IMG/VR virus record: IMGVR_UViG_3300037466_002980
Location: 64,001 to 128,000 of that record
Strand: one strand, 5' to 3'
Length of the DNA: 64,000 nucleotides
Origin: a virus
Lineage: Duplodnaviria; Heunggongvirae; Uroviricota; Caudoviricetes
Shown here piece after piece: positions 5,727-37,594 of the stretch. Each line of letters opens with the position of its first letter. Positions within the stretch are counted from its first letter, which is position 1. A program made the translations under genes and the position numbers. Below the pieces are notes generated by a model. That model saw only the letters and a list, made by a program, of their open reading frames with translations. It ran no database searches and was not told the DNA's origin.

Positions 5727-7005
5727 TTTTCACCTGTTTTGTAAATACCTTCCTAAATATTGATACGACATCATCAACAGAACCAATATTAACAATTGCT
5801 AAGTTATCAAAATTAGCTGTCATTTGCTTCATAGTTGTAAAAACATTTGTCTGATATGATCTTTCTAAATTCATGTATTCAGAAGTCCCGCCAGGTTTCA
5901 CTTCATTATAAACATAATATTGGCACTTAGGTAATATTTCTTCTAATTCTGATTTTAAATCATTTTCATCATTGCTAAAATTATCACCATCGGATGCCTG
6001 CACTACATAAATATTCCAATCATCCAATGGATATTCTTCATTGATAATTTCATTAACTTTCTTAACTCCGGTACTAACCATTGTTCCACCAGATTCTTTA
6101 TCATAGAAAAATTGATGTTCAGTGCATTCATCAGCAGTCGTAGTATGACGAACAAATCTTATATCCACCTTCTCATATTTTCTCTGTAGAAATAGATATA
6201 ATAACAAAAAGAATCTTTTAGCTATTTCCTTTTCTCTTTCTTCCATACTGCCCGAAACATCCATTAAACAAAAAACAACAGCCTGACTCGAAGGTAATGG
6301 AATTTGAGTATATCTTTTATACTTAACATCAACTTGATCAATATATGAAACAGCATTTCTTCTTGTTTTTAATTCAAGTAATTCTTGCTGTAATTGAATT
6401 AATAATTCGGAGTCAATACATTTCTCAATCTCTTCTTCTTTCTCTTTTATTTTTCTATCAAGTGGGAAGGCTAATGCAATTCTTCTACCTAAAGCATTTT
6501 TTAAGCTTCTTTCTAAATCAAGATTATTTGGTGTACCAGAAGTTGAAAACCCAGATCTCTTCCTTGCGAAGCGTATAGCAGTTTCTTCGCTTTCCTTGAT
6601 TAAATCTGGAAGTTCAAGATCTTCAAAAAGAATGTCTAAATATTCTTCTTTAGAAATAGTAAAGACAAATGTATCTTCACCATCTCCGTTATCACTAGCA
6701 TCTTTTCCTTTTCCTTGTCCAGATTTTTCTCTCTTAATAGTATCTCCCACCACAAAATCTCTATTTCCTGGTAAGACTCTATCCCAATCTCCCGATTGGT
6801 AATCATAATCAAAAACTGGTTCGGAAATTCCATCTGTAGAGATGGTGATAGATTCATCCTCTTCGGATGTGATGTCTCTATCAATTGCTCTTTTTCTTAT
6901 CTTTTCCTTTATCCAATCGTTTGCCCTTTTTAGGAAACGTTGCCTATTAGACAGATTTTTTCCTTTCGGATTCAATCGTCTATCAATAATGGTATAATTA
7001 TCCAT
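5716..7005 (-). CDS. yeaH: YeaH/YhbH (DUF444) vWA-domain protein
   Basis: IIDRRLNPKGKNLSNRQRF N-terminus, LFEDLELP, MIDAS DVSGSM, SGGT and ASDGDN. Confidence 0.93.
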   Translation of the reverse strand: MDNYTIIDRRLNPKGKNLSNRQRFLKRANDWIKEKIRKRAIDRDITSEEDESITISTDGISEPVFDYDYQSGDWDRVLPGNRDFVVGDTIKREKSGQGKGKDASDNGDGEDTFVFTISKEEYLDILFEDLELPDLIKESEETAIRFARKRSGFSTSGTPNNLDLERSLKNALGRRIALAFPLDRKIKEKEEEIEKCIDSELLIQLQQELLELKTRRNAVSYIDQVDVKYKRYTQIPLPSSQAVVFCLMDVSGSMEEREKEIAKRFFLLLYLFLQRKYEKVDIRFVRHTTTADECTEHQFFYDKESGGTMVSTGVKKVNEIINEEYPLDDWNIYVVQASDGDNFSNDENDLKSELEEILPKCQYYVYNEVKPGGTSEYMNLERSYQTNVFTTMKQMTANFDNLAIVNIGSVDDVVSIFRKVFTKQVKNGK

Positions 7006-8945
7006 TAAGAGCTCTTGGCCACCCTAATATGCCATTCAACCAGGCGTTTAACCTGTTTAGCAGTATATCCCTTACTCATCATTCTGTGAACAAATTCGTC
7101 GTGTTTCTTTTGATCGTCACTGTTTGATTTAGCACCAAAACTAATAACTGGCAATAATTCTTCCGTACTAGCAAACATCTTCTTTTCAATTACTTCACGT
7201 AAATTTTCATACGAAGTCCATTTTACAGGATTGCCACCATTTTTTGCCCTTGCTCGAAGTACAAAATTAACAACCTCATTACGAAAATCTTTAGGATTTG
7301 AAATACCTGCAGGTTTTTCAATCTTTTCAAGTTCTTTATTTAAAACATTTCTATCAAAAAGATTTCCTGTGTCAGGATCTTTGAAGTCAATTTCTTGTAT
7401 CCATGCATCAGCATATTCGATATATCTATCAAATAAATTCTGTCCATAATCACTATAACTTTCAAGATAAGCCTTTTGAATTTCACTACTTAATTGATCA
7501 GCATATCTTGGTGCTAAATGTTCTTTAATGAAATTAATATATTTTCCTTCTTTCTCTTCGCCAAATTGTTCTTGTTTAATTGCATCTTCAAGAACATACA
7601 TTAAATGTACCGGATCGGCCGCAACTTCAGATGGATCGAAATTAAATGTCTTAGATAATATCTTGAATGCAAAACGTGTGCTAATTCCACTCATTCCTTC
7701 GTCGACACCGGCATTGTCCTTATATTCCTGAAGTCCTTTTGCTCTTGGATCAGTATCCTTAATCGCTTCTCCATCATATACTCGCATCTTACTGTATATA
7801 TTAGAGTTTTCGTGATCTGAGATTCTGGTTAATACACAAAATTTAGCCAAAATATCCAATGTTTCTGCTGCGCACGGTGCTTGACTAAGGCTCGAACTTT
7901 CGAGCATTTTAACATAAATATTTTTCTCGTCTGTAACACGCAAACAATATGGAACTTTTACAACATAAACTCTATCAATAAAAGCTTCATTATTCTTATT
8001 ATTCTTAAATGTTTGCCATTCACTCTCGTTACTATGTGCTAAAACAACACCATTAAACGGGATTGCACTAATGCCTTCTGTTCCGACATAATTGCTTTCT
8101 TGTGTTGCAGTTAATAATGGATGTAACATTTTAATTGGTGCCTTGAACATTTCTACAAATTCAACCAGGCCCTGATTTCCACGGCATAGTGCTCCAGAGA
8201 ATGAATAGCTATCTGGATCATTCTGGTCGAAATGTTCTAACATTCTAATATTTGTTTTTCCAACTAGGTTACTAATATCCTGGTTATTATCATCACCCGG
8301 TTCGGTCTTGATAACACCGATTTGTTCTAATTTATTTGGAAATACTTTTACGACCTTAAATAAAGTCTTATCGTGTCCATATTCTTTCAATCTCTTGATT
8401 GCCCATGGACTAAGAACATTATTTAAATATCGTTGTGGAATGCCATATTCCTTTTCAATAAGATCACCATATTGTTCCTTATTGAAAAGACCTAATGGAG
8501 ATTCAAAGACCGGACTCATATTTCCGTCTTTGTCTGCTAGTACATAAATGGGAAATTTCTGAATTAGTTCCTTGAGGCGCTCTGCTAAGGAGCTCTTTCC
8601 GCCGCCTACTGGACCAAGGAGATAGAGAATCTGTTTACGTTCTTCTAATCCTTGTGCAGCATGTGTAAAATATCCAACAATTCTTTCAATTGATTCTTCC
8701 ATTCCAAAAAAATCACTGAAAGCTGGATACCTTTTTATTGTTCTATTTAAAAAGATCCGACTTAGGCGTGGATCTCTATGTGTATCTATTAATTCCGGTT
8801 CACCGATTGCTTTAAGAATTCTTTCAGCTGCGGTGGCATACATTGTATTATCTGATTTGCATCCTTCAAGGTATTCCTTTAAAGAAATAGTCTCCTGACG
8901 AAATGCGATTTTCTCATCAGATAATAATTTGAACAACTTAGACAT
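7005..8945 (-). CDS. prkA: PrkA/YeaG AAA+ ATPase / serine protein kinase
   Basis: Walker A GPVGGGKSS, EPGDDNNQDIS, Walker B GLVEFVEMFK, HPLLTATQE and GISTRF. Confidence 0.95.
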   Translation of the reverse strand: MSKLFKLLSDEKIAFRQETISLKEYLEGCKSDNTMYATAAERILKAIGEPELIDTHRDPRLSRIFLNRTIKRYPAFSDFFGMEESIERIVGYFTHAAQGLEERKQILYLLGPVGGGKSSLAERLKELIQKFPIYVLADKDGNMSPVFESPLGLFNKEQYGDLIEKEYGIPQRYLNNVLSPWAIKRLKEYGHDKTLFKVVKVFPNKLEQIGVIKTEPGDDNNQDISNLVGKTNIRMLEHFDQNDPDSYSFSGALCRGNQGLVEFVEMFKAPIKMLHPLLTATQESNYVGTEGISAIPFNGVVLAHSNESEWQTFKNNKNNEAFIDRVYVVKVPYCLRVTDEKNIYVKMLESSSLSQAPCAAETLDILAKFCVLTRISDHENSNIYSKMRVYDGEAIKDTDPRAKGLQEYKDNAGVDEGMSGISTRFAFKILSKTFNFDPSEVAADPVHLMYVLEDAIKQEQFGEEKEGKYINFIKEHLAPRYADQLSSEIQKAYLESYSDYGQNLFDRYIEYADAWIQEIDFKDPDTGNLFDRNVLNKELEKIEKPAGISNPKDFRNEVVNFVLRARAKNGGNPVKWTSYENLREVIEKKMFASTEELLPVISFGAKSNSDDQKKHDEFVHRMMSKGYTAKQVKRLVEWHIRVAKSS

Positions 8946-8974
8946 TTAACCTACCTTTATCTAATTTGAGGTTG

Positions 8975-9020
8975 ATAAAAATACACCCTAGATGGAAATT
9001 ACCATCTTAGTGTATTTATC
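8975..9020 (-). promoter_or_regulatory. Late-promoter-like GATAAATA (9013-9020) embedded in an inverted repeat / terminator-like hairpin upstream of prkA
   Basis: Minus strand reads GATAAATACACTAAGATGG-TAATTT-CCATCTAGGGTGTATTTTT. Confidence 0.6.
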
Positions 9021-9054
9021 TATACCCTTTTAATTATATAAAGGATCTGGATTC

Positions 9055-10161
9055 TTATCTATTTGAAGTATAATAGAGTTTGAAACTTTCTGTATTTAGA
9101 AAATCAGTTAGAGAGATATCAGTATGATTAACTATGCCTTTAATTTTTCCAGATAGGAAAAGTTCTAATACAGCAACTCCGCCACCAGCCGTGGTAGATT
9201 GGATAGAAGTAAAATTTTCTGCTCCATAGAATTTTCTAGAGAAAGTATTTCTTACCTTCTTGCCTTTCTTGGTTCCCATTGCTACGCCAAAGACAACAAT
9301 AACGTCTTGTCTAGTATAAGGAAACACCTTTAAGAATTCAGCCTTAATTCGGTCGAAATCTCCGTGATTTCTTTCCACGGCATCTGCAACATAATCATAA
9401 TGTGTAGGATATCTTAAAGTCTTATAGGAAACATTTGGAACTGATTTTAAATCCTTAATCAGGGATCCAATGCCACCGGATGTAAATGCGGCTTCATATT
9501 CACATCCGTCGATAATGACTTTTTCTCTTCCTGTTAAGGCAGGAATATCATAGAGTCTGCCATCCTTCTTAATTCTACAATCACGGATATATTCATTAAC
9601 AAGTCCATCAACACTCCAAGAAAGGCTATATAGATCTTGCGGACGAGTGCCGTTTACATTTTTCGGAAGAGCACCAACAGATACCATAAGACTATCAGCA
9701 GTATCTAAATCCTTTACTAGGTTATATCCTACATAATTGATAAATCCTGGAGCAAGTCCGCATTTAACGGCACAATTCAATTCGGGATGATCCTTGTAGA
9801 TATCCTGAACTTTATCTGCCATTACATCGTCTTCAGTAAAATCAATATAGGAACAATTTGCATCTGCTGCGGCAATAGCAACCTTTTCGTTTAAGAAAAA
9901 CGGCAAAGCATTGATTACATAAGAAATTTCATACTGCCGGAAAATCTTTGATAATTCTTCCGAAGAGGAGTTTCCAATATCGAAAAGAATATGCGAAAAA
10001 TTCCCGGCAGCCTGAAGTGCTGAAAGATCAGAATCGATTAGGTAGCAACGAACATGGTTTAAGTCATTATTTTCGTCATAATCTTTGTATTTGAAATTTT
10101 CAATCATTTCGACTAATGCCGAACCAATTTGACCTGCACCAAGTATTGCTACCTTTCTCAT
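9055..10161 (-). CDS. Saccharopine dehydrogenase family oxidoreductase (lysine 6-dehydrogenase / carboxynorspermidine synthase-like)
   Basis: Rossmann GAGQIG, INALPF, CGLAPG, VGALP, WSVDGLVNEY and YKTLRYP. Confidence 0.85.
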   Translation of the reverse strand: MRKVAILGAGQIGSALVEMIENFKYKDYDENNDLNHVRCYLIDSDLSALQAAGNFSHILFDIGNSSSEELSKIFRQYEISYVINALPFFLNEKVAIAAADANCSYIDFTEDDVMADKVQDIYKDHPELNCAVKCGLAPGFINYVGYNLVKDLDTADSLMVSVGALPKNVNGTRPQDLYSLSWSVDGLVNEYIRDCRIKKDGRLYDIPALTGREKVIIDGCEYEAAFTSGGIGSLIKDLKSVPNVSYKTLRYPTHYDYVADAVERNHGDFDRIKAEFLKVFPYTRQDVIVVFGVAMGTKKGKKVRNTFSRKFYGAENFTSIQSTTAGGGVAVLELFLSGKIKGIVNHTDISLTDFLNTESFKLYYTSNR

Positions 10162-10173
10162 AATTTCCTCTCT

Positions 10174-11559
10174 TTAATGTACTAATTCTTTTGCTCTTGC
10201 ACGAACTTCATTGAAGTTTGTTTCATTCATAATCTCACCATTCTTAAATCTCGTAACAAGATAATCAGTCTGGTCACTGTGTGTTTCATATCGGTTGGTA
10301 ACAAAGTTACCGTCCTTGTCTTTGTTAAGAACAGGACGACCCTTGAAACTTTTCTTCATCGACGATGTAACAGGATCCTTAAACACATCTATCCATTTGC
10401 CATTAATCTTAGCAGCGGAACATTTCATTGCGAATTCCAACGTATCTCTATTGACTTGTTGCAATAGAGCACCGCCTTGTCCAAATGCAACGTTATCTGC
10501 ACTATATCCTGCAATTTCCATACAGAACAGAATAGAACGGATGCTACTGTGATCAATACCGTCGCCTTGAATAATTCGAACATTATTCAGCACTCTGTAA
10601 CCCTTAGAGTTTACAATATGTCCAAAATGTTTATCAAGTATTCTAAGGCAATTCAAAACAACTTCGCTCGGATTTCCACTATCGGGACGAATCACAACGG
10701 TTGCCTTGCTCTTAAGAACATCTTCTTTCAGTTCTGTTCCCCATTTTTCACATGCCTCATAGATATTATAGCTATCACTGACGCAAGCAACATTTTTGCC
10801 TTCACCGCCATATAGTTTAATCATGTTTCGGAAAGAATCGGTTTCGTGTTCTCTTCCCCAACTGGTAACTGTACTATGTTCCATTGCAGGAATACTGAAA
10901 CCACAAATTCCCGAATCATAATACTCCATTGCAGCAAGAAGTCCATCGACAGTATCGGTCCCCATGAAGTTAACCAAGTGAGCCATACCACCGAGTCCAG
11001 CACTTTCTCTACTGGAAACACCACGGCAACCGAAATCATGAAGTTTAAAATCGATCAATTCGGGTGTACCTGTTTTTTCAAGGTATTCCAGAATAATTTG
11101 TTTGCTATGATAACTGTTGCTTGCAACAGTAGTCGGGTACCAAATGGATCTAAGAATCAAGGTTTCTAAGAAACCAGGTACCCAATAGCACTTCGGGTCT
11201 GTATTTGTCACAGTCAATAAGACATTCTTGAGGCGCATCACTGTCCCTTCATCGACTGCCTTAATTTCAATCGGTAAATACCCGCCGTGTTCCTTGACAA
11301 TATATTCCCAACCTTCCCTGTTGAAGGGTTCGCCGTGTGCTGTAATGATTGCCTCTGCTTGATCAATCATTTCCATAGTAATGGGATCAGTTAGATACTC
11401 TCGAATTAATGCCTGTGTACCGAGATACACAAGTCTATCATAGATACCACCACGAGATGAAATATACAGAACAACTTGCTCGGTCCCTTGCGGGAATTGA
11501 TTCCATTGTGAATATTTGTAACTATCAGCTGATAAGAGTAAATTTTTTCTAAATTTCAT
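10174..11559 (-). CDS. nadV: Nicotinamide phosphoribosyltransferase
   Basis: DSYK, LHDFGCRG, SIPAMEHS, VSDSY, IRPDSG, IQGDG, GGALLQ and KDPVT. Confidence 0.96.
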   Translation of the reverse strand: MKFRKNLLLSADSYKYSQWNQFPQGTEQVVLYISSRGGIYDRLVYLGTQALIREYLTDPITMEMIDQAEAIITAHGEPFNREGWEYIVKEHGGYLPIEIKAVDEGTVMRLKNVLLTVTNTDPKCYWVPGFLETLILRSIWYPTTVASNSYHSKQIILEYLEKTGTPELIDFKLHDFGCRGVSSRESAGLGGMAHLVNFMGTDTVDGLLAAMEYYDSGICGFSIPAMEHSTVTSWGREHETDSFRNMIKLYGGEGKNVACVSDSYNIYEACEKWGTELKEDVLKSKATVVIRPDSGNPSEVVLNCLRILDKHFGHIVNSKGYRVLNNVRIIQGDGIDHSSIRSILFCMEIAGYSADNVAFGQGGALLQQVNRDTLEFAMKCSAAKINGKWIDVFKDPVTSSMKKSFKGRPVLNKDKDGNFVTNRYETHSDQTDYLVTRFKNGEIMNETNFNEVRARAKELVH

Positions 11560-28714: not shown

Positions 28715-30145
28715 TTATCGCTTCTTCAGGAAGGATCTTAATACGGCAGCTGATTCTAATGTGTTCGGTTTTTCTTTAATTCCGCCCATATTTGTAATTT
28801 CCCCAGAATCTGGGTCAATTTTTTCTCCTGCCTTAACCACACTCTTTTTCTTGAGTGCTTCATAGATATTTTTCGAAGTTGCCGTAACGGTATTATCATC
28901 GTCCTCTTCGAGATCATAAATTCTCAAACTCTTATTATTGAATGCTAAATCGATTTTTGATCCAACACCAGAACTTGAACGTGTTTTCATAAATTGTATT
29001 TGATAACGTCCACTTTCTTTCATAGCCGCACTGGTAAAAATACCAATTACGTTATCGGCTGTATTAACCTTCGAAATACCACCAGCAATGTGACTCGGAT
29101 CAAATTCAATTTCTTCATAAGATCCTCTGTTTAACTGTGAAGCCGAAACACATAATATATTCAGTTCAACTGCAAGATTTCGTAATTCTTCAGTAACATA
29201 TTTGTCCTTCACGAATAAATTTTCTGCTGATACTTTCCTTGAAATTGGGAACATTAAGTCAAGGTAATCAACAAGAATTGCATCAACTTTTTTTCCAGAA
29301 TGTATTTCGTATTCTTTAATAAATGCCCTAACATCATTAGAAGTGCATCCATTTGGTAATTGCTTAATTCTTAACGAACCATGACTCTTCTGTTGTGACG
29401 CCCTAATCTTCATATGAACGTCTTCGATGTTTTTCATAATTTCTCTTGTTTCATAACCAGTGTGCATTGCATCAATACGCATGGCACACAGTTTTTCACT
29501 AAGTTCTAATGATAGATACAAAACATTTAATCCAGCCGTTGCCCAATTTACTGCCAAATTTTGCAAAAATAATGACTTTCCTGCTCCAGACTGTCCAGCA
29601 AAAATAGTTATTTCGCCTCTGTTCAGTCCGCCAAAAAGTTTATCATCAACTGCTCTCCAATAGGTTGGTAATTGTCCTTTGTTTTCTTTCAATGCCTCTA
29701 ATCTAGATTTTGGATTTTCGTAATAATCTAATCCTAAATCTTTAACCAATGCAATCTGAACTGCTTCCTTGACTGCTGTTTCCACTTCTCCATAACGACC
29801 CTGGTCGAGTAATTCCGGAGATGCCAGGATAGCATCCCTTAAAGACTTATATCTACAGAATAATTCTATTTCTTTTAGAAACCATCTATCCTCCTTGGCT
29901 GCAATTTCTGGAATTAATTCTATATCTTTTCCTGTAATTGCCTTAATCTGATCTACAGAAGGCATTGCAGAATATTGTGTAAAATGTGAATTAATTATTT
30001 TCACAACTTCTCTGTTTTGATTATTATCAAAGAAACTGTCCTTTAATATTCCGGAACATCTAACAAATAATTCGTGATTACTCAACATAAATTGTAGAAA
30101 TAATGTTTCTACTTCGGGTGTATATTCTAAAATTTCACTTTGCAT
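28715..30145 (-). CDS. Replicative DnaB/gp41-like helicase
   Basis: Walker A AGQSGAGKS, YLSLEL, ILVDYLDLM, ASQLNR and KTRSS. Confidence 0.93.
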   Translation of the reverse strand: MQSEILEYTPEVETLFLQFMLSNHELFVRCSGILKDSFFDNNQNREVVKIINSHFTQYSAMPSVDQIKAITGKDIELIPEIAAKEDRWFLKEIELFCRYKSLRDAILASPELLDQGRYGEVETAVKEAVQIALVKDLGLDYYENPKSRLEALKENKGQLPTYWRAVDDKLFGGLNRGEITIFAGQSGAGKSLFLQNLAVNWATAGLNVLYLSLELSEKLCAMRIDAMHTGYETREIMKNIEDVHMKIRASQQKSHGSLRIKQLPNGCTSNDVRAFIKEYEIHSGKKVDAILVDYLDLMFPISRKVSAENLFVKDKYVTEELRNLAVELNILCVSASQLNRGSYEEIEFDPSHIAGGISKVNTADNVIGIFTSAAMKESGRYQIQFMKTRSSSGVGSKIDLAFNNKSLRIYDLEEDDDNTVTATSKNIYEALKKKSVVKAGEKIDPDSGEITNMGGIKEKPNTLESAAVLRSFLKKR

Positions 30146-31196
30146 ATTTTATTCTTCTCATTCGTTCGTGTTGTTCGATATCCCATTTAACTGTAATTTT
30201 TTCTTTTCCTGATATTCTTGATTGTATTATAGAATATAGAGTCAACAATTTTCCATATTTCTCAGACGCTTTTGCAGCATCCTTGATATCTCTTTCCCAG
30301 CGTGGAAAAGAAACAGCCCAATCATTTTCGATTGCAACTTTAACTAAATCCTCGCCTTTCTTATCTCTATCTGGACATACTATTATTTCTTTATTTAACT
30401 TATTAATAATATCGACCTTATTTTGACCGACTTCTCCAAGTACACTCACACCATCAGTTACCCACGCATCAAGAACACCTTCAGTTACAATAAGGTATTT
30501 ACGTGACCATTCTTGTTGATTATCAAGGTTATAAACAAAATCAGTCGGGCATTGTTGATAATATTTCGGTATAATCTTCTGATCAATATCGTATGAAAGT
30601 CTTGCCGTAAATCCAACTATATTATTTCGATATTTGTACGGAATAATAAGACGTTCATTTAAATGATTATCTGTTATTGGCGTCCAATAAAAATTTTCAA
30701 GATTATAAATTTTTCGCTGAAGTGCATAATTGACAACTTTCAGAAAATTCGGATCATCTAATCCGTGTTCTAACCATTGTTTTATTGATAGTGAATTTTC
30801 AGGTAATTCGATTCCTTCCCATCTTTGAAATAATGATCTTAATTTCGATTCTCTATCCTCTTCACCATCTTTAGTTATTCTAAGATTATTTCTTTCTCTA
30901 AAAATTTCGAATTCAATGTGTTTGATAAATTTTTCATCAATACCAAGATGTCTTAAGAAAAATTTAAATGAATCTGAAAGTTCCTTTCCTTCTGAATATC
31001 CAGCAGAAAATCCACAATTAAAACAATTAATTGCAATTGATTGTGGATTTAACTGGATACCTAATCGATTTCTTGTATCTTTTCCGTGGCCACGAGATGT
31101 ACATAAGAAACAGCACCTCTTCTGCCAATTCTTTGGTGCGGATTTAAGTGGTCCGATATTTTGAAGTATGGATTCTTTTAATAGATCTGTAATCAT
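30135..31196 (-). CDS. DNA primase (gp61-like)
   Basis: Zn ribbon CCFLC...NCFNC and TOPRIM VTEGVLDA, PDRDKKG, KDAA. Confidence 0.88.
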   Translation of the reverse strand: MITDLLKESILQNIGPLKSAPKNWQKRCCFLCTSRGHGKDTRNRLGIQLNPQSIAINCFNCGFSAGYSEGKELSDSFKFFLRHLGIDEKFIKHIEFEIFRERNNLRITKDGEEDRESKLRSLFQRWEGIELPENSLSIKQWLEHGLDDPNFLKVVNYALQRKIYNLENFYWTPITDNHLNERLIIPYKYRNNIVGFTARLSYDIDQKIIPKYYQQCPTDFVYNLDNQQEWSRKYLIVTEGVLDAWVTDGVSVLGEVGQNKVDIINKLNKEIIVCPDRDKKGEDLVKVAIENDWAVSFPRWERDIKDAAKASEKYGKLLTLYSIIQSRISGKEKITVKWDIEQHERMRRIKYAK

Positions 31197-31264: not shown

Positions 31265-32137
31265 TTACATTCTAACAATAAGTTTATCTAATGTTCCGGG
31301 ATCTAACACAGCCTTAGATGGGAAATATCTAAATTTCAACCACATAAAATTTGCCTGGAATGTCCATGCCTGTGTACCAGTATAATTGATATACTGTATA
31401 TCGGTTGCTAACGATGATGGATAAATTTTAACCCATCGAGTGCTATTTAAATAGGCATCCGGAGTCTCTTCTAACGTTCCCCAGATTTCTAAAGTTCCAG
31501 TGAATCCCTGTGTATAAGTTGAAAAACTATGAACTGAATCTTTATGATTAAGAACTCTTGCACCCGGAATTCGTGGAGAATAAAAACAAGGTTGTGGAGC
31601 ACCCATTATAGGAACAATTAAATCTGGTGTCCAATCACCCGGAAGAAGTGTTATACCAACCGGTGGTTTAACCAGTCCCTGTTCGGTGATTTCAATTTGC
31701 ATTGTAATATTATCATTGTAATCAGTGAAGAGTGGTTTCTCGACATAGTACCCCGGTATATCAGATATAAATTCTTGCGTTCTAACCAATACCATCTGAT
31801 ACATACCGGCTGGTAAATCAATTATATCACCGGCATCAATCTTCAATTTCACAAGACCCTTAGCAGGTCCAAGATAACATAGTTTCTCGAACACAATATC
31901 TCTATTCTGCGTATCAACAATTCTAGCAAAAACCTGATATCCACATGCGACATCTACTGGATTTCTATCAGGTCCTAGAACTCTGAAAATTAATTCATTG
32001 TCTACACCTTTATGCGCCTTCAATGGTTGTAAATTATTCATTGGCCCTGTATCCTTACAAAGGCAAAGAGTATCACCAATAGCACGTAGTTCCCAAACAT
32101 GGTCATAGAGGTAAACTTTATTGATGTTAACATTCAT
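31265..32137 (-). CDS. Putative virion structural protein
   Basis: The late motif at 32158-32165 lies inside the track ORF, so the start was moved to ATG 32137. Confidence 0.6.
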   Translation of the reverse strand: MNVNINKVYLYDHVWELRAIGDTLCLCKDTGPMNNLQPLKAHKGVDNELIFRVLGPDRNPVDVACGYQVFARIVDTQNRDIVFEKLCYLGPAKGLVKLKIDAGDIIDLPAGMYQMVLVRTQEFISDIPGYYVEKPLFTDYNDNITMQIEITEQGLVKPPVGITLLPGDWTPDLIVPIMGAPQPCFYSPRIPGARVLNHKDSVHSFSTYTQGFTGTLEIWGTLEETPDAYLNSTRWVKIYPSSLATDIQYINYTGTQAWTFQANFMWLKFRYFPSKAVLDPGTLDKLIVRM

Positions 32138-32219
32138 TATCGATCCTGCCTTTTCAGTATTTATCACAAAGTAAACCAAAAAAATCCAATCTTCGATTGA
32201 ATTATAATAAATAAACCGT

Positions 32220-32591
32220 ATGATAAATTTAGAAGAAATACAAGAAAAATTTCCCTTTTTAACCGGAATACGGTGTCAAAATCAAGAATTTATTGGCATA
32301 ATTCAAAATTCTGATGAAAAAATCATCAGTTTCTATGATTACGAGTCAATAAAAACATCAGAGGAAAAAATTCTCTTTCTCCAACATGGCGAAACATGGT
32401 GGTGGGAAAGTAATAGATTATTACCTATTAATATATTTCTTCAAGGACAGATGTCGTCTTTTAGATATTGTCTAAAAACAATAATGAATAAAGATGTTGA
32501 AATTATGTTTGGTTCCGTTACCAGTTTAAATAACATAATGAAGAAACGAATCAAAAAGCGCCAAATTCAATTAATCAGAAAAGCAGATTAA
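32220..32591 (+). CDS. Hypothetical protein
   Basis: 123 aa; GETWWWESNR.LPINIFL; AATAAATA just upstream. Confidence 0.75.
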   Translation: MINLEEIQEKFPFLTGIRCQNQEFIGIIQNSDEKIISFYDYESIKTSEEKILFLQHGETWWWESNRLLPINIFLQGQMSSFRYCLKTIMNKDVEIMFGSVTSLNNIMKKRIKKRQIQLIRKAD

Positions 32592-33175
32592 TTTTCATTT
32601 CCCATTTTTTCCAATAGAAGATTCAGATTAACAAGAATTGCTAATGCATAGGCAAGTCCGTGACCACGTTTAAATTGGTAACTATCTGCTGAATTTTTTA
32701 CCCAAACTTCTTTACGTATTCTTTCCCAATTTTCTTTCTGTAAATAAGCCTTTGATGGGCGAATTATAGCTAAAATCATTGCTAGATCTTCTACCGACCT
32801 GGGTTTATATCTTATCAATAATTCACTATAACCGTTCAAATGAAATAGTTGATCTGTTATTTCAGGAAATTCAAAGAATTCCCAAGGTGGTTCACGCTTC
32901 AACAAATCTAATAAATGTTCTTCGTTCTTAATTCCTTCATAAAAATTGACATTAAGAAAATCTACTTTAAAATATCCCAATTCTCCGGCATCCTTATAAT
33001 CGATACTAGAGATATTTGTACTAGGATCTCTTGGAATATTCTGAAAATAAACACCCGTTGGATGTTTATCAAATTTTCCTTCATTCCTATCAATTCGTCC
33101 AAAAACGCAATCTAATCCCGATAATATTTCATCGCGATTGAAAACATCGATATCTACGTCAGTTTGAATTTTCAT
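32588..33175 (-). CDS. Minimal DNA polymerase III alpha (DnaE)-like catalytic-core protein
   Basis: TDVDID, KHPTGVY, GYFKVDFL, LAIIRP and YQFKRGHGLAYA correspond in order to DnaE motifs. Confidence 0.8.
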   Translation of the reverse strand: MKIQTDVDIDVFNRDEILSGLDCVFGRIDRNEGKFDKHPTGVYFQNIPRDPSTNISSIDYKDAGELGYFKVDFLNVNFYEGIKNEEHLLDLLKREPPWEFFEFPEITDQLFHLNGYSELLIRYKPRSVEDLAMILAIIRPSKAYLQKENWERIRKEVWVKNSADSYQFKRGHGLAYALAILVNLNLLLEKMGNEN

Positions 33176-33375
33176 TTCAATAATTTGTCAAATTTCAATT
33201 TGAAGAGTGAGGCTTCTGATTCATCAAAGAAAGTAAAAACATGATAACCAAATTGTTTTAAATTATCTTGATAGATACAATCTGTATTTTGATCCAGCCA
33301 TTCCTCAATCTCTTCTGGTAAATCTTTGCGACGATACCCCAATTTCCATACTGGATAACGAACAACAACTGTCAT
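33172..33375 (-). CDS. Small hypothetical protein (F-x-D-E family)
   Basis: FTFFDESEASLFKLKF. Confidence 0.65.
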   Translation of the reverse strand: MTVVVRYPVWKLGYRRKDLPEEIEEWLDQNTDCIYQDNLKQFGYHVFTFFDESEASLFKLKFDKLLK

Positions 33376-33677
33376 TTGTAATTTTTCTCTTGTTCTAAGC
33401 TATTTTCATGCAATATCATTTTTTCTAACTTCGATAATGTTTTTTCATGCATGCCAAAACGAAGAGTAAACATTGTTAGATCATTTTCATCTGCAAATTC
33501 GATACTTAAATTATCTTTTGATATTCGATAATTCTCTGGGTTCACACATTCATCTAACCAATTTTTATATACTTTCATTTCCTCTTCAGATGGTGCTATA
33601 TAATGCCGGGAAGAAAATGGATTCTGTCTAAAAGGAATTCTAATACAATATGGAAATATAAAATTCTTCTTTTTCAT
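33372..33677 (-). CDS. Small hypothetical protein (F-x-D-E family)
   Basis: IEFADENDLTMFTLRFG. Confidence 0.65.
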   Translation of the reverse strand: MKKKNFIFPYCIRIPFRQNPFSSRHYIAPSEEEMKVYKNWLDECVNPENYRISKDNLSIEFADENDLTMFTLRFGMHEKTLSKLEKMILHENSLEQEKNYK

Positions 33678-34366
33678 AATCCTGCCTGTTCCAATAGGTT
33701 CTTTATATATGTAACATCATCCTCGGATTTTTTAAATTTTCTCATCCAAAAACCGGGATCAATAATATTCTGTATCATCTTTGCATGATCATCGTTAAAT
33801 TTATTCATTAATAATTCACCAGTTGAACTTAAATACAATACCCACGGACTTATTTTTCCTGTGTTGATAAGATATGCTGCTTCATTCGGATTAATAATAT
33901 TAAAGAACTTCGAGAATTCACAATTATTTTCATTACACCAATTCATTATTTCAGTAATAGTTCGTTCTACCGCACTTTCGGCAGGTTCTTTTTTAATTAA
34001 ATCTTCGATATAATGTTGATATACAAAATCCTGTGTCCAATCCTTTAATTTGACACTATTCATAATAACAAAATCAATATATTTTTCCATATATACTGGT
34101 TTCAATAATGCAAGATAATTTCCAAATTTTACAAAATCAATATAATATGGACTATTAATAAATTCGTCAGCAGATTTTACCTTCTTGGACTTAGTTGTAA
34201 GATCATAGAAACGCTGAAAGGCTCTAAAACCGATTCTAGAACCTGTGGCATTTAAATCCATGTGTCTTCTTTTCTTAACACACATATGTTTAGAAAGAGT
34301 AGTTTCTTTCTGAAATTTAGTACCACAGAATTGACATTCATAATTCTGTTGCATTTTAGCCTTCAA
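33674..34366 (-). CDS. Zinc-finger-containing protein
   Basis: YECQFCGTKFQKETTLSKHMC. Confidence 0.7.
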   Translation of the reverse strand: MKAKMQQNYECQFCGTKFQKETTLSKHMCVKKRRHMDLNATGSRIGFRAFQRFYDLTTKSKKVKSADEFINSPYYIDFVKFGNYLALLKPVYMEKYIDFVIMNSVKLKDWTQDFVYQHYIEDLIKKEPAESAVERTITEIMNWCNENNCEFSKFFNIINPNEAAYLINTGKISPWVLYLSSTGELLMNKFNDDHAKMIQNIIDPGFWMRKFKKSEDDVTYIKNLLEQAGL

Positions 34367-35749: not shown

Positions 35750-36134
35750 GTCTTCCTTTCAACCATTTTGATTCTTCATCTTCTCTTATCAATTTGGTTT
35801 TTAATTTGTTAGTTTCTTTTTCATATCTTGCATAGATTCCTTCAGGGCTTCGTTGGCATTTTAATAGATAATCTACCAACATATTTTCGATACCATTATG
35901 TACTATTGCCATATATGAAAGTTGAGTTGCTGAATCACAATGTTCGTCGAAAGAAATTTCAATTAAATCATATTTCAGTTCCCATTTCTGTCTCGGATCG
36001 GTTACATACTGATAAGATGAAATATAAATCTCTTCTTTTAGTTTATTTGCATCAAGAAAAATATCGAGTAGACCAAGATTTTCTTGACTAGCCAATATAC
36101 CTGTTTGAATTACCTTACTATATTCTATTTCCAT
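35730..36134 (-). CDS. Hypothetical protein
   Basis: 134-aa ORF coupled to uvsW. Confidence 0.6.
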   Translation of the reverse strand: MEIEYSKVIQTGILASQENLGLLDIFLDANKLKEEIYISSYQYVTDPRQKWELKYDLIEISFDEHCDSATQLSYMAIVHNGIENMLVDYLLKCQRSPEGIYARYEKETNKLKTKLIREDEESKWLKGRHEHINQ

Positions 36135-37594
36135 TAATATTCTACCTTTGTAACGCTAAATGGATACTCCGATTCATTATAGAATTTTTTTCGTTTTGTT
36201 AAATGCCTCTTAGAGAATTTACAATTAGAACAGATATCATAGACATCTACAAAATCCTTATCAGGTGCTACTCGAATACCTCTACCAATACTCTGAATAA
36301 CTCTAACAAAACTCTTTCCTGCTTCAAATAAAACAAGGTTAAAAATTCGAACAATATTAATACCAGTTGAAGCCACGCCATATGTTGCAATAATAACCTT
36401 ATTATCAACTTCTTGTACTTCTTTATATTCTTCTTTTCTATCTTTTGATTTCATTTTACCCGAAACAAAAATAGAATCTGGAATTAATTTTTCTAACATT
36501 TCTCCCGTCTGAACTCTATCTACAAGAACTAAGGTATTGCCTTTTTCGGAAATATTCTTAACACTTTCTGCCACAAATTTCAAACGATGTTCACTGGTAG
36601 TTAACCATTTCAATTCCTGTTGATAACTATCAAAGACATCACCTAGATCTTGAAGTTGCCAAACATTAATATGAAGTTTAGCTAATATTCCTTTTTCTTG
36701 TAATTCTTTGGTCCTAATTGTTCCTAACATAGGCCCAATGCAAGCAAGAACGGCTAATTTATCAAACTCTTCCTCTGGCATTGTTCCCGTTAGCCCCCAT
36801 CGAATTGGGCAGTCCTTCAAATAAGAACTCAATAATTTTCTTAGAACGTCTGCTTTTGCTTTGTGAACTTCGTCTACGATAACCGCTGTGACACCGCTGA
36901 AGAATTCTTCTATATTGATTGGTAAATCTTCTTCGGATTTCGATTTTTTTGCTAAATTTTCTAGACTTTGCCATGTGCAGATTGTATGGGTTTTTCCATA
37001 TTCCTTTCTATCACCGAAGAATACACCGACATCTAAACCAAAATTTCGATAATCTTCTTCTGTCTGAGTTACTAAATCCTTTGTAGGAACAATAACAATA
37101 CTTCTACCATATGGTTCCACTTTATGGCTTAAAATAGCAGTAATAATTGTTTTTCCTGCACCTGTCGGAGCAATATTAATACCTGTTGGATTTGTTAGAT
37201 AGGAATTTATAACATCAAGTTGATGCTCACGAAGTAAGACAGATTCTCCCGCCTTAGGATGACCTTTGGGCCAAATAATATGAGCATAACTATCCTCATT
37301 AACTTCTTCAAATTCAAATTCCGGAGATGGTTGACGTTGATCGTCAATTTCTATTTCATATCCTTCGTGTTGTATTACAGGCAGCAATTTATCAAGTAAA
37401 TTTAGATAAGATCTACCACCTATATCACAGAATGAAATCTTTCCGTTCCATCTTCCTAATTTGAATGCTGGCGTATGTCTTGCATACGGAACCATAAATT
37501 CCAATGCTTGAACCAATTTACGTCGTGTTGATACATCAAGGTCAGTAAACCGGATGTTTACCTCATCGAGTATCTGTAAGGTTGTTTTTGCCAT
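36134..37594 (-). CDS. uvsW: UvsW-like SF2 DNA helicase
   Basis: APTGAGKT, DEVH, GLTGT, STGINI and QSIGRGIR. Confidence 0.92.
   Translation of the reverse strand: MAKTTLQILDEVNIRFTDLDVSTRRKLVQALEFMVPYARHTPAFKLGRWNGKISFCDIGGRSYLNLLDKLLPVIQHEGYEIEIDDQRQPSPEFEFEEVNEDSYAHIIWPKGHPKAGESVLLREHQLDVINSYLTNPTGINIAPTGAGKTIITAILSHKVEPYGRSIVIVPTKDLVTQTEEDYRNFGLDVGVFFGDRKEYGKTHTICTWQSLENLAKKSKSEEDLPINIEEFFSGVTAVIVDEVHKAKADVLRKLLSSYLKDCPIRWGLTGTMPEEEFDKLAVLACIGPMLGTIRTKELQEKGILAKLHINVWQLQDLGDVFDSYQQELKWLTTSEHRLKFVAESVKNISEKGNTLVLVDRVQTGEMLEKLIPDSIFVSGKMKSKDRKEEYKEVQEVDNKVIIATYGVASTGINIVRIFNLVLFEAGKSFVRVIQSIGRGIRVAPDKDFVDVYDICSNCKFSKRHLTKRKKFYNESEYPFSVTKVEY

Follow-up and report, generated by a model that had tools for sequence, protein, structure and literature searches.

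The C-terminal half of a two-piece minimal DNA polymerase III alpha in an uncultivated 363-kb phage

The DNA analysed here, called the window in what follows, is a stretch of 64,000 nucleotides from the Caudoviricetes record IMGVR_UViG_3300037466_002980 of IMG/VR. The source record is a complete phage genome of 362,810 bp with direct terminal repeats, and the window covers its bases 64,001-128,000; coordinates below refer to the window unless given as genome positions. The gene of interest, ORF-B, is an open reading frame (ORF) of 195 amino acids (aa) on the minus strand (32588..33175) that begins with ATG and ends in TAA. We consider it almost certain that ORF-B is the C-terminal subunit, carrying the Mg2+-binding palm and minimal fingers, of a two-piece minimal DNA polymerase III (Pol III) alpha of the type found in group 2.2 (RaK2/PA5oct/121Q-like) jumbo phages. 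The start of the gene overlaps the stop of an upstream 67-aa ORF as ATGA (33172-33175), and its stop shares the tetranucleotide TTAA (32588-32591) with that of a convergent plus-strand ORF. Both overlaps bear out an earlier note on this DNA, made from the sequence alone, which had described clean gene ends coupled to the neighbours.

The same note had listed five DnaE-like motifs in a particular order, and all five are present in ORF-B in that order, each encoded on the minus strand. DVDID (residues 6-10; 33146..33160, codons read directly) contains D6 and D8, the first two metal-binding aspartates. HPTGV (residues 38-42; 33050..33064) is the counterpart of H-A-x-G-V of DnaE and belongs to a palm strand, predicted to span residues 35-43. 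GYFKVDFL (residues 67-74; 32954..32977) provides K70, equivalent to K553 of Escherichia coli DnaE, and D72, equivalent to D555, the third catalytic aspartate. Two finger motifs follow, namely, LAIIRP (residues 135-140; 32756..32773), in which R139 and P140 correspond to E. coli R639 and P640, and YQFKRGHGLAYA (YQFKRGH..AYA, residues 166-177; 32645..32680), in which K169 and H172 correspond to K758 and H760. We take D401, D403 and D555 of E. coli as the established catalytic residues of Pol III alpha; the equivalence of D6 and D8 to D401 and D403 is read from the alignment register (hhalign of both halves and VIA-align).

The resemblance of ORF-B to DnaE is true homology, well beyond chance. 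In the PHROGs database, the family phrog_11778, annotated as DNA polymerase and 197 positions long, matches ORF-B nearly end to end (E 1.1e-61; residues 2-190 on profile positions 4-194), and the family of full-length DnaE proteins, phrog_405 (1190 positions), matches it through positions 578-681 (E 3.2e-6). ORF-B taken as a single sequence gives a marginal Pfam result, DNA_pol3_finger only (E 0.014; 15.1 bits versus a cut-off of 22), and a single-sequence phmmer search against the PDB yielded nothing but noise (for example, designed TIM barrels at E 0.06). We therefore rely on an alignment, A2, of 85 ORF-B homologues that are 28-55% identical to the query, obtained by searching 1.84 billion representative sequences exhaustively with HMMER (348 hits at E <=0.001). 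Compared with all PDB sequences, the A2 profile recovers nine distinct DnaE sequences at E 6.6e-6 to 1.5e-4, with other entries appearing only at E ~0.9. In the resulting alignment GYFKVDFL falls on E. coli GLVKFDFL (550-557), IIRP on FRP (638-640) and YQFKRGH..AYA on YGFNKSHSAAYA (754-765). When hhalign was run against residues 290-790 of E. coli DnaE (translated from NC_000913.3), the register was identical (E 2.4e-5).

Conservation within the family is concentrated on the catalytic positions. D6, D8, K70, D72 and P140 are invariant in A2, and D10, H38, G41, W98, P125, A132, R139, K169, H172 and A177 are conserved in at least 90% of the sequences. The family comprises 2,330 clusters at 90% identity, and the 120 members listed are 192-203 aa long. 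The nearest relatives are metagenomic, with up to 75% identity, and the protein of phage PA5oct is 52% identical. The three catalytic aspartates on which the earlier note had built its reading are thus retained across all 85 homologues, and its view of ORF-B as a much-shortened but genuine DnaE relative, rather than a decayed fragment, agrees with the PHROGs matches, the PDB profile hits and the predicted fold, and with invariant catalytic residues at 28-55% identity and near-constant lengths among the matches listed.

The AlphaFold2 model of ORF-B computed from A2 is of high confidence (mean predicted local distance difference test score, pLDDT, 96.0; predicted template modelling score, pTM, 0.88). 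It consists of a five-stranded sheet followed by a helical finger region; D8 is located in strand 7-11, D6 just ahead of that strand, and D72 in strand 71-75. All 15 of the best Foldseek PDB hits are C-family polymerases, including Mycobacterium tuberculosis DnaE1 (5lew, E 6.5e-4), Thermus aquaticus DnaE (4iqj, 2hpi, 3e0d), E. coli DnaE (2hnh and 5fku) and Geobacillus kaustophilus PolC (3f2b). Superposition on DnaE and PolC structures with VIA-align gave Z scores of 9.7-6.2 over 183-193 of the 195 residues, with a root-mean-square deviation of 3.4-4.3 A, and the next fold, that of glyoxalases, drops to Z 3.9. The Pol-beta-like palm, whose presence was the structural prediction of the earlier note, is therefore modelled with confidence. 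Residues 1-194 of the model correspond to residues 397-784 of the E. coli enzyme, 458-841 of the T. aquaticus enzyme and 968-1296 of PolC. ORF-B thus represents the second half of the palm and the core of the fingers, from which about 190 residues of insertions, the thumb included, are gone. Consistent with the earlier note, no PHP, HhH or OB domain is seen in the protein, for which Pfam yields only the sub-threshold finger match.

The palm half that ORF-B lacks is encoded in the same genome. Searches with PF07733 and with phrog_405 each reveal a second DnaE-like gene, ORF-A, which lies outside the window on the minus strand (genome 37,686-38,216), 58 kb from ORF-B, and encodes a protein of 176 aa corresponding to the N-terminal half of the palm. 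Residues 93-175 of ORF-A match PF07733 at profile positions 13-94 (34.9 bits; cut-off 23.9), and phrog_11127, also annotated as DNA polymerase, matches the protein with an E value of 1.4e-48. Across 33 aligned ORF-A homologues the motif W-G-V-G-R-G-S-(S/A)-V-S-S shows essentially no variation, and with a single exception these proteins terminate in [DE]-Y-L-[KR]. With hhalign, the G-R-G-S of ORF-A is placed on R362-G363-S364 of E. coli DnaE and its last residue, K176, on N393. The AlphaFold model (pLDDT 84.5) superimposes through residues 80-176 on E. coli 279-393, M. tuberculosis 306-413 and PolC 823-965 (VIA-align Z 10.4-6.2 overall and 8.4-10.4 for E. coli; next fold, Z 2.8). Foldseek also ranks DnaE and PolC at the top for ORF-A, without significance (E >=0.36). 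The first approximately 80 residues form a conserved small alpha/beta region, which might replace an absent module of DnaE.

The last residue of ORF-A corresponds to E. coli residue 393 and the first residues of ORF-B to approximately 396-399, the latter protein starting about five residues before its first catalytic aspartate. The two proteins consequently tile the DnaE palm and fingers (E. coli 279-784) with a gap of about two residues. The split separates the nucleotide-binding motif G[GS] from the DxD strand and so lies inside the minimal Pol-beta nucleotidyltransferase core, and for this reason neither ORF-A nor ORF-B should be active alone. Of the two possibilities raised by the earlier note for ORF-B, one subunit of a split polymerase is thus the right one. 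Where the note went astray was in seeking the partner among the neighbouring ORFs at 32220, 33674, 34367 and 35246. None of these has similarity to DnaE or PF07733, and the piece that completes the palm is the one 58 kb away. Two of the neighbours retain their synteny with ORF-B in distant phages, namely, a zinc-finger protein (48% identical to PA5oct gp219) and a protein of 123 aa (63% identical to gp221), and this would suit a partner of some kind; even in the weaker sense of extra accessory factors, however, we regard a partnership with the neighbours as quite unlikely.

The geometry of the split also bears on whether the two genes are decaying remnants of a full-length phage DnaE or halves joined by a split intein. 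DnaE is a classic host of split inteins, and both genes are short and scattered, as either history would lead one to expect. Yet ORF-A ends on N393 and ORF-B starts at about 396-399, so that no residues are left over and there is no room for intein halves, and decay is difficult to reconcile with more than 2,300 protein clusters for each half, near-constant lengths among the members listed and catalytic residues that stay invariant despite extensive divergence. We find either history scarcely credible.

The two halves have closely similar distributions. Among 50,697 phage records, the C-terminal half was found in 96 and the N-terminal half in 93, with almost identical host counts (C-half/N-half): Escherichia 34/34, Pseudomonas 11/11, Klebsiella 11/10, Erwinia 8/8, Salmonella 8/8 and Xanthomonas 4/4. 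In the records whose positions were compared, the distance between the N-half and the C-half ranges from 15 to 224 kb: 15 kb in XacN1, ~31-44 kb in 121Q, RaK2 and PA5oct, 58 kb in the present phage, 116 kb in SCTP-2, 182 kb in Atu_ph07 and 224 kb in Phosso.

One protein recovered in the search of representative sequences, P0348, is a candidate natural fusion of the N-half with the C-half. This metagenomic protein of 375 aa contains the N-half, a linker of about nine residues and the C-half on one chain. Its first 180 residues correspond to the N-half (E 1e-21 to ORF-A), ending in ...NIKEFIK, and the C-half begins with ADFDID.... The PF07733 match runs unbroken across the junction (59.6 bits, profile positions 12-121), and the junction contains neither a methionine nor a stop, which makes P0348 unlike two ORFs misassembled together. 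When P0348 was used as the query, 92 of the 96 phage records yielded two separate matches and none a single place spanning both halves. No relative of P0348 was found in the viral contigs searched, and scans of viral and metagenome contigs produced no further fused mini form, the metagenome scan giving two ordinary full-length DnaE genes. A search for longer relatives of ORF-B yielded a single, unrelated methyltransferase chimera of 390 aa, in which 44% of the query is covered.

The metagenome contig OKRZ01000398.1 carries, at 6366-10382, an otherwise ordinary DnaE in the form of two consecutive ORFs 66 bases apart, the first of 382 aa (the PHP part, as judged by eye) and the second, of 933 aa, comprising the polymerase. 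This could be another kind of split, or the product of a frameshift or an assembly error.

The distribution and the fusion speak to the notion that ORF-B is self-sufficient, either as a minimal polymerase or, as the earlier note had also considered, as a minimal C-family nucleotidyltransferase acting alone. It does possess all three catalytic aspartates and is predicted to fold confidently by itself, but it starts about five residues before the first of these aspartates, without the N-terminal palm half that bears the GRGS triphosphate-binding motif, and the complementary protein, its companion in 92 of 96 phage records, is joined to it on a single chain in P0348. A lone enzyme is accordingly very improbable. 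Taken together, the tiling of DnaE by the two proteins, the invariant residues and the location of the GRGS-bearing ORF-A elsewhere in the genome led us to reject the standalone-enzyme reading along with the split intein, the pseudogene and the neighbour as the missing half.

A system of this kind has been known since 2021 from computer analysis, and the window does not add a new kind of system. Iyer, Anantharaman, Krishnan, Burroughs and Aravind (Viruses 13:63, 2021; PMC7824862) described from jumbo phages of group 2.2 a 'minimal, split DNA polymerase III alpha', and suggested that it cooperates with the family B polymerase (PolB) in the synthesis of one strand or in repair. The present pair has the same subunit sizes (~195 and ~176 aa), the same split point and the same distant genes, and in both cases PolB is present, PHP is absent and the flanking replication genes are alike. 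We see no essential difference, except that the host genome here is that of an uncultivated 363-kb phage. At the level of individual genes, PA5oct lacks the two small ORFs seen here between the zinc-finger gene and ORF-B. Known members include RaK2 ORF124/ORF162 and the PA5oct gp220 locus, the families being phrog_11778 for the C-half and phrog_11127 for the N-half, and both genes already bear the labels 'DNA polymerase' or 'DnaE-like' in RefSeq, PHROGs and several GenBank records. The present phage displays the features by which membership in this group can be judged, namely, an end-to-end phrog_11778 match, homology to the DnaE palm and fingers, the aspartate triad, a distant N-half and a PolB without PHP. 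These genes go unmentioned in the main text of the PA5oct omics paper, and the term 'DNA polymerase' does not occur in the main text of the 2026 review 'The biology of jumbo phages'. What is added here is a residue-level map of both halves on E. coli DnaE, structure models predicted with confidence for the two halves, and the candidate fusion P0348, of which we saw no mention in the available portion of Iyer et al. 2021 (PMC7824862).

With bacterial DnaE and PolC (2hnh, 3e0d, 5lew, 3f2b) the two phage proteins have in common the Pol-beta-type palm, the aspartate triad and the GRGS, RP and KxxH motifs. However, the phage pair amounts to ~370 aa on two chains, versus more than 1,000 aa on one chain in bacteria, and it is devoid of PHP, thumb, HhH and OB domains as well as of parts that bind the beta clamp or tau. 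In the C-half, the stretches from D403 to HAxGV and from RPG to YGFNKSH are each shorter than in DnaE by roughly 100 residues. Hence, of the characters of a full-length DnaE or PolC, the catalytic triad, K553 and the RP and KSH motifs are present, whereas the PHP domain and the complete single chain are not.

The cyanobacterial intein-split DnaE is likewise a C-family polymerase made from two distant genes, but there the split is at about residue 774, whereas the phage split corresponds to E. coli 393-396, within the core of the palm, and no intein is present. Since there is no intein, the two phage halves would have to associate non-covalently, joining into one composite active site. ORF-A would grip the triphosphate of the incoming nucleotide, and ORF-B would hold two Mg2+ ions and contact the template. 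The expected reaction is Mg2+-dependent DNA synthesis from deoxynucleoside triphosphates (dNTPs), presumably short-patch and of low processivity because the thumb and the PHP, clamp-binding and OB modules are missing. Such an enzyme may work alongside the 908-aa family B replicase of the phage in replication or repair, one possibility being the fill-in or extension of primers next to the primase-helicase.

The best overall explanation, to which we assign a probability of about 75%, is therefore a split minimal Pol III alpha whose subunits share one active site and which is accessory to PolB. Assembly of the halves into an active polymerase draws its one piece of indirect support from the candidate natural fusion P0348. 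Several observations weigh against this explanation. The N-terminal 79 residues of ORF-A (genome 37,979-38,216) have no relative in the Foldseek-ranked PDB list, and an ESM Atlas search with the first 82 residues of the N-half returned nothing above chance. P0348 is a singleton from one 2,415-bp ENA contig. No experimental or biochemical study of either half was found in the literature searched. Finally, templated synthesis is not assured, because the thumb and every DNA-clamping module of DnaE are absent; that the pair has templated DNA polymerase activity seems to us only somewhat better than an even bet.

The absence of the thumb and of the clamp-binding, HhH and OB modules is also what could be expected if the two-piece enzyme were an active nucleotidyltransferase other than a templated polymerase, adding untemplated tails, making a nucleotide signal or an anti-defence product, or modifying DNA ends. 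The Pol-beta fold underlies many non-polymerase transferases, and the genome already has a full PolB replicase. We nevertheless consider such a function unlikely, given that the finger motifs R139-P140, K169-x-x-H172 and A177, whose counterparts in DnaE contact the incoming dNTP and the template, are conserved, and that both halves are encoded in replication gene clusters. H760 of E. coli DnaE, the counterpart of H172, is presumably the sugar-discriminating residue. At the other end of the scale, the pair might be a working template-directed polymerase, the smallest known of the C family, that for example extends the primers made by the adjacent primase and then hands them off to PolB, with the rare single-chain P0348 as its unsplit ancestor. 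This scheme, in which the phage enzyme would resemble the DnaE of Bacillus, which extends primers before hand-off to PolC, is possible but doubtful; were it true, P0348 would be a model of the primordial Pol III core. If the pair is active, two small proteins would share the active site of a minimal C-family polymerase, which would help to define the least that a Pol III-type enzyme needs and would show how polymerases of the bacterial and of the archaeo-eukaryotic type are used together by one phage.

Both polymerase halves sit in replication clusters. The genome has an intact 908-aa PolB with exonuclease and polymerase domains, and the PHP domain PF02811 has no match anywhere in it at E <=1, versus matches in 14 of 14 control genomes; the search for these two features had been proposed in the earlier note, which had also placed ORF-B in a T4-like replication setting. 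This setting is evident from the genes around ORF-B. A DnaB-like helicase (28715-30145, minus strand; DnaB_C, E 2.9e-22) is followed by a primase (30135-31196, minus strand), which has no Pfam hit and is named from a zinc-finger/TOPRIM-like sequence read by eye and from synteny, its position matching that of the annotated primases of Phosso, PA5oct and RaK2. Then come a homologue of a virion structural protein, the convergent 123-aa ORF, ORF-B, two small ORFs, the zinc-finger gene, four ORFs to which no function is assigned and a UvsW-like helicase (36134-37594). The same gene order around ORF-B is found in PA5oct, Phosso and RaK2, so that ORF-B accompanies the helicase-primase module in all four phages checked. 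After ORF-A come a small ORF, a GroES-like co-chaperonin and an RFC-type clamp loader (phrog_168, E 9e-76), an arrangement shared by the present phage, MIJ3/PA5oct, Phosso and RaK2.

The convergent ORF of 123 aa (32220..32591, plus strand; phrog_11637, E 5.7e-33) is the only plus-strand ORF with family support in a long run of minus-strand genes. It is more conserved with respect to PA5oct (63%) than ORF-B itself (52%) and carries a basic C-terminal tail, KKRIKKRQIQLIRK. PA5oct, Phosso and RaK2 (ORF125w) likewise have a convergent ORF at this place. Although it does not supply the missing half of the polymerase, the protein may serve as an accessory factor. The zinc-finger protein of the C2H2 type (33674-34366, minus strand; 230 aa) matches phrog_11058 and contains an N-terminal zf-C2H2_2 domain with an E value of 6.7e-5, below the Pfam cut-off. 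Its PA5oct counterpart is annotated directly upstream of the C-half of the mini-polymerase, and an accessory role in DNA binding is possible. Neither of the two small, translationally coupled ORFs between this gene and ORF-B (67 aa, 33172-33375, and 101 aa, 33372-33677, both on the minus strand) matches a PHROG or Pfam family. Their sequences resemble each other weakly (W-L-D...F-x-D-E...F-x-L-[KR]-F; pairwise E 0.002), and they may be tandem paralogues. The remaining member of the cluster, encoded between the primase and ORF-B (31265-32179, minus strand), is 33% identical to PA5oct gp222, a protein detected in virions by mass spectrometry. Its position, an odd one within a replication cluster, is kept in PA5oct, Phosso and RaK2.

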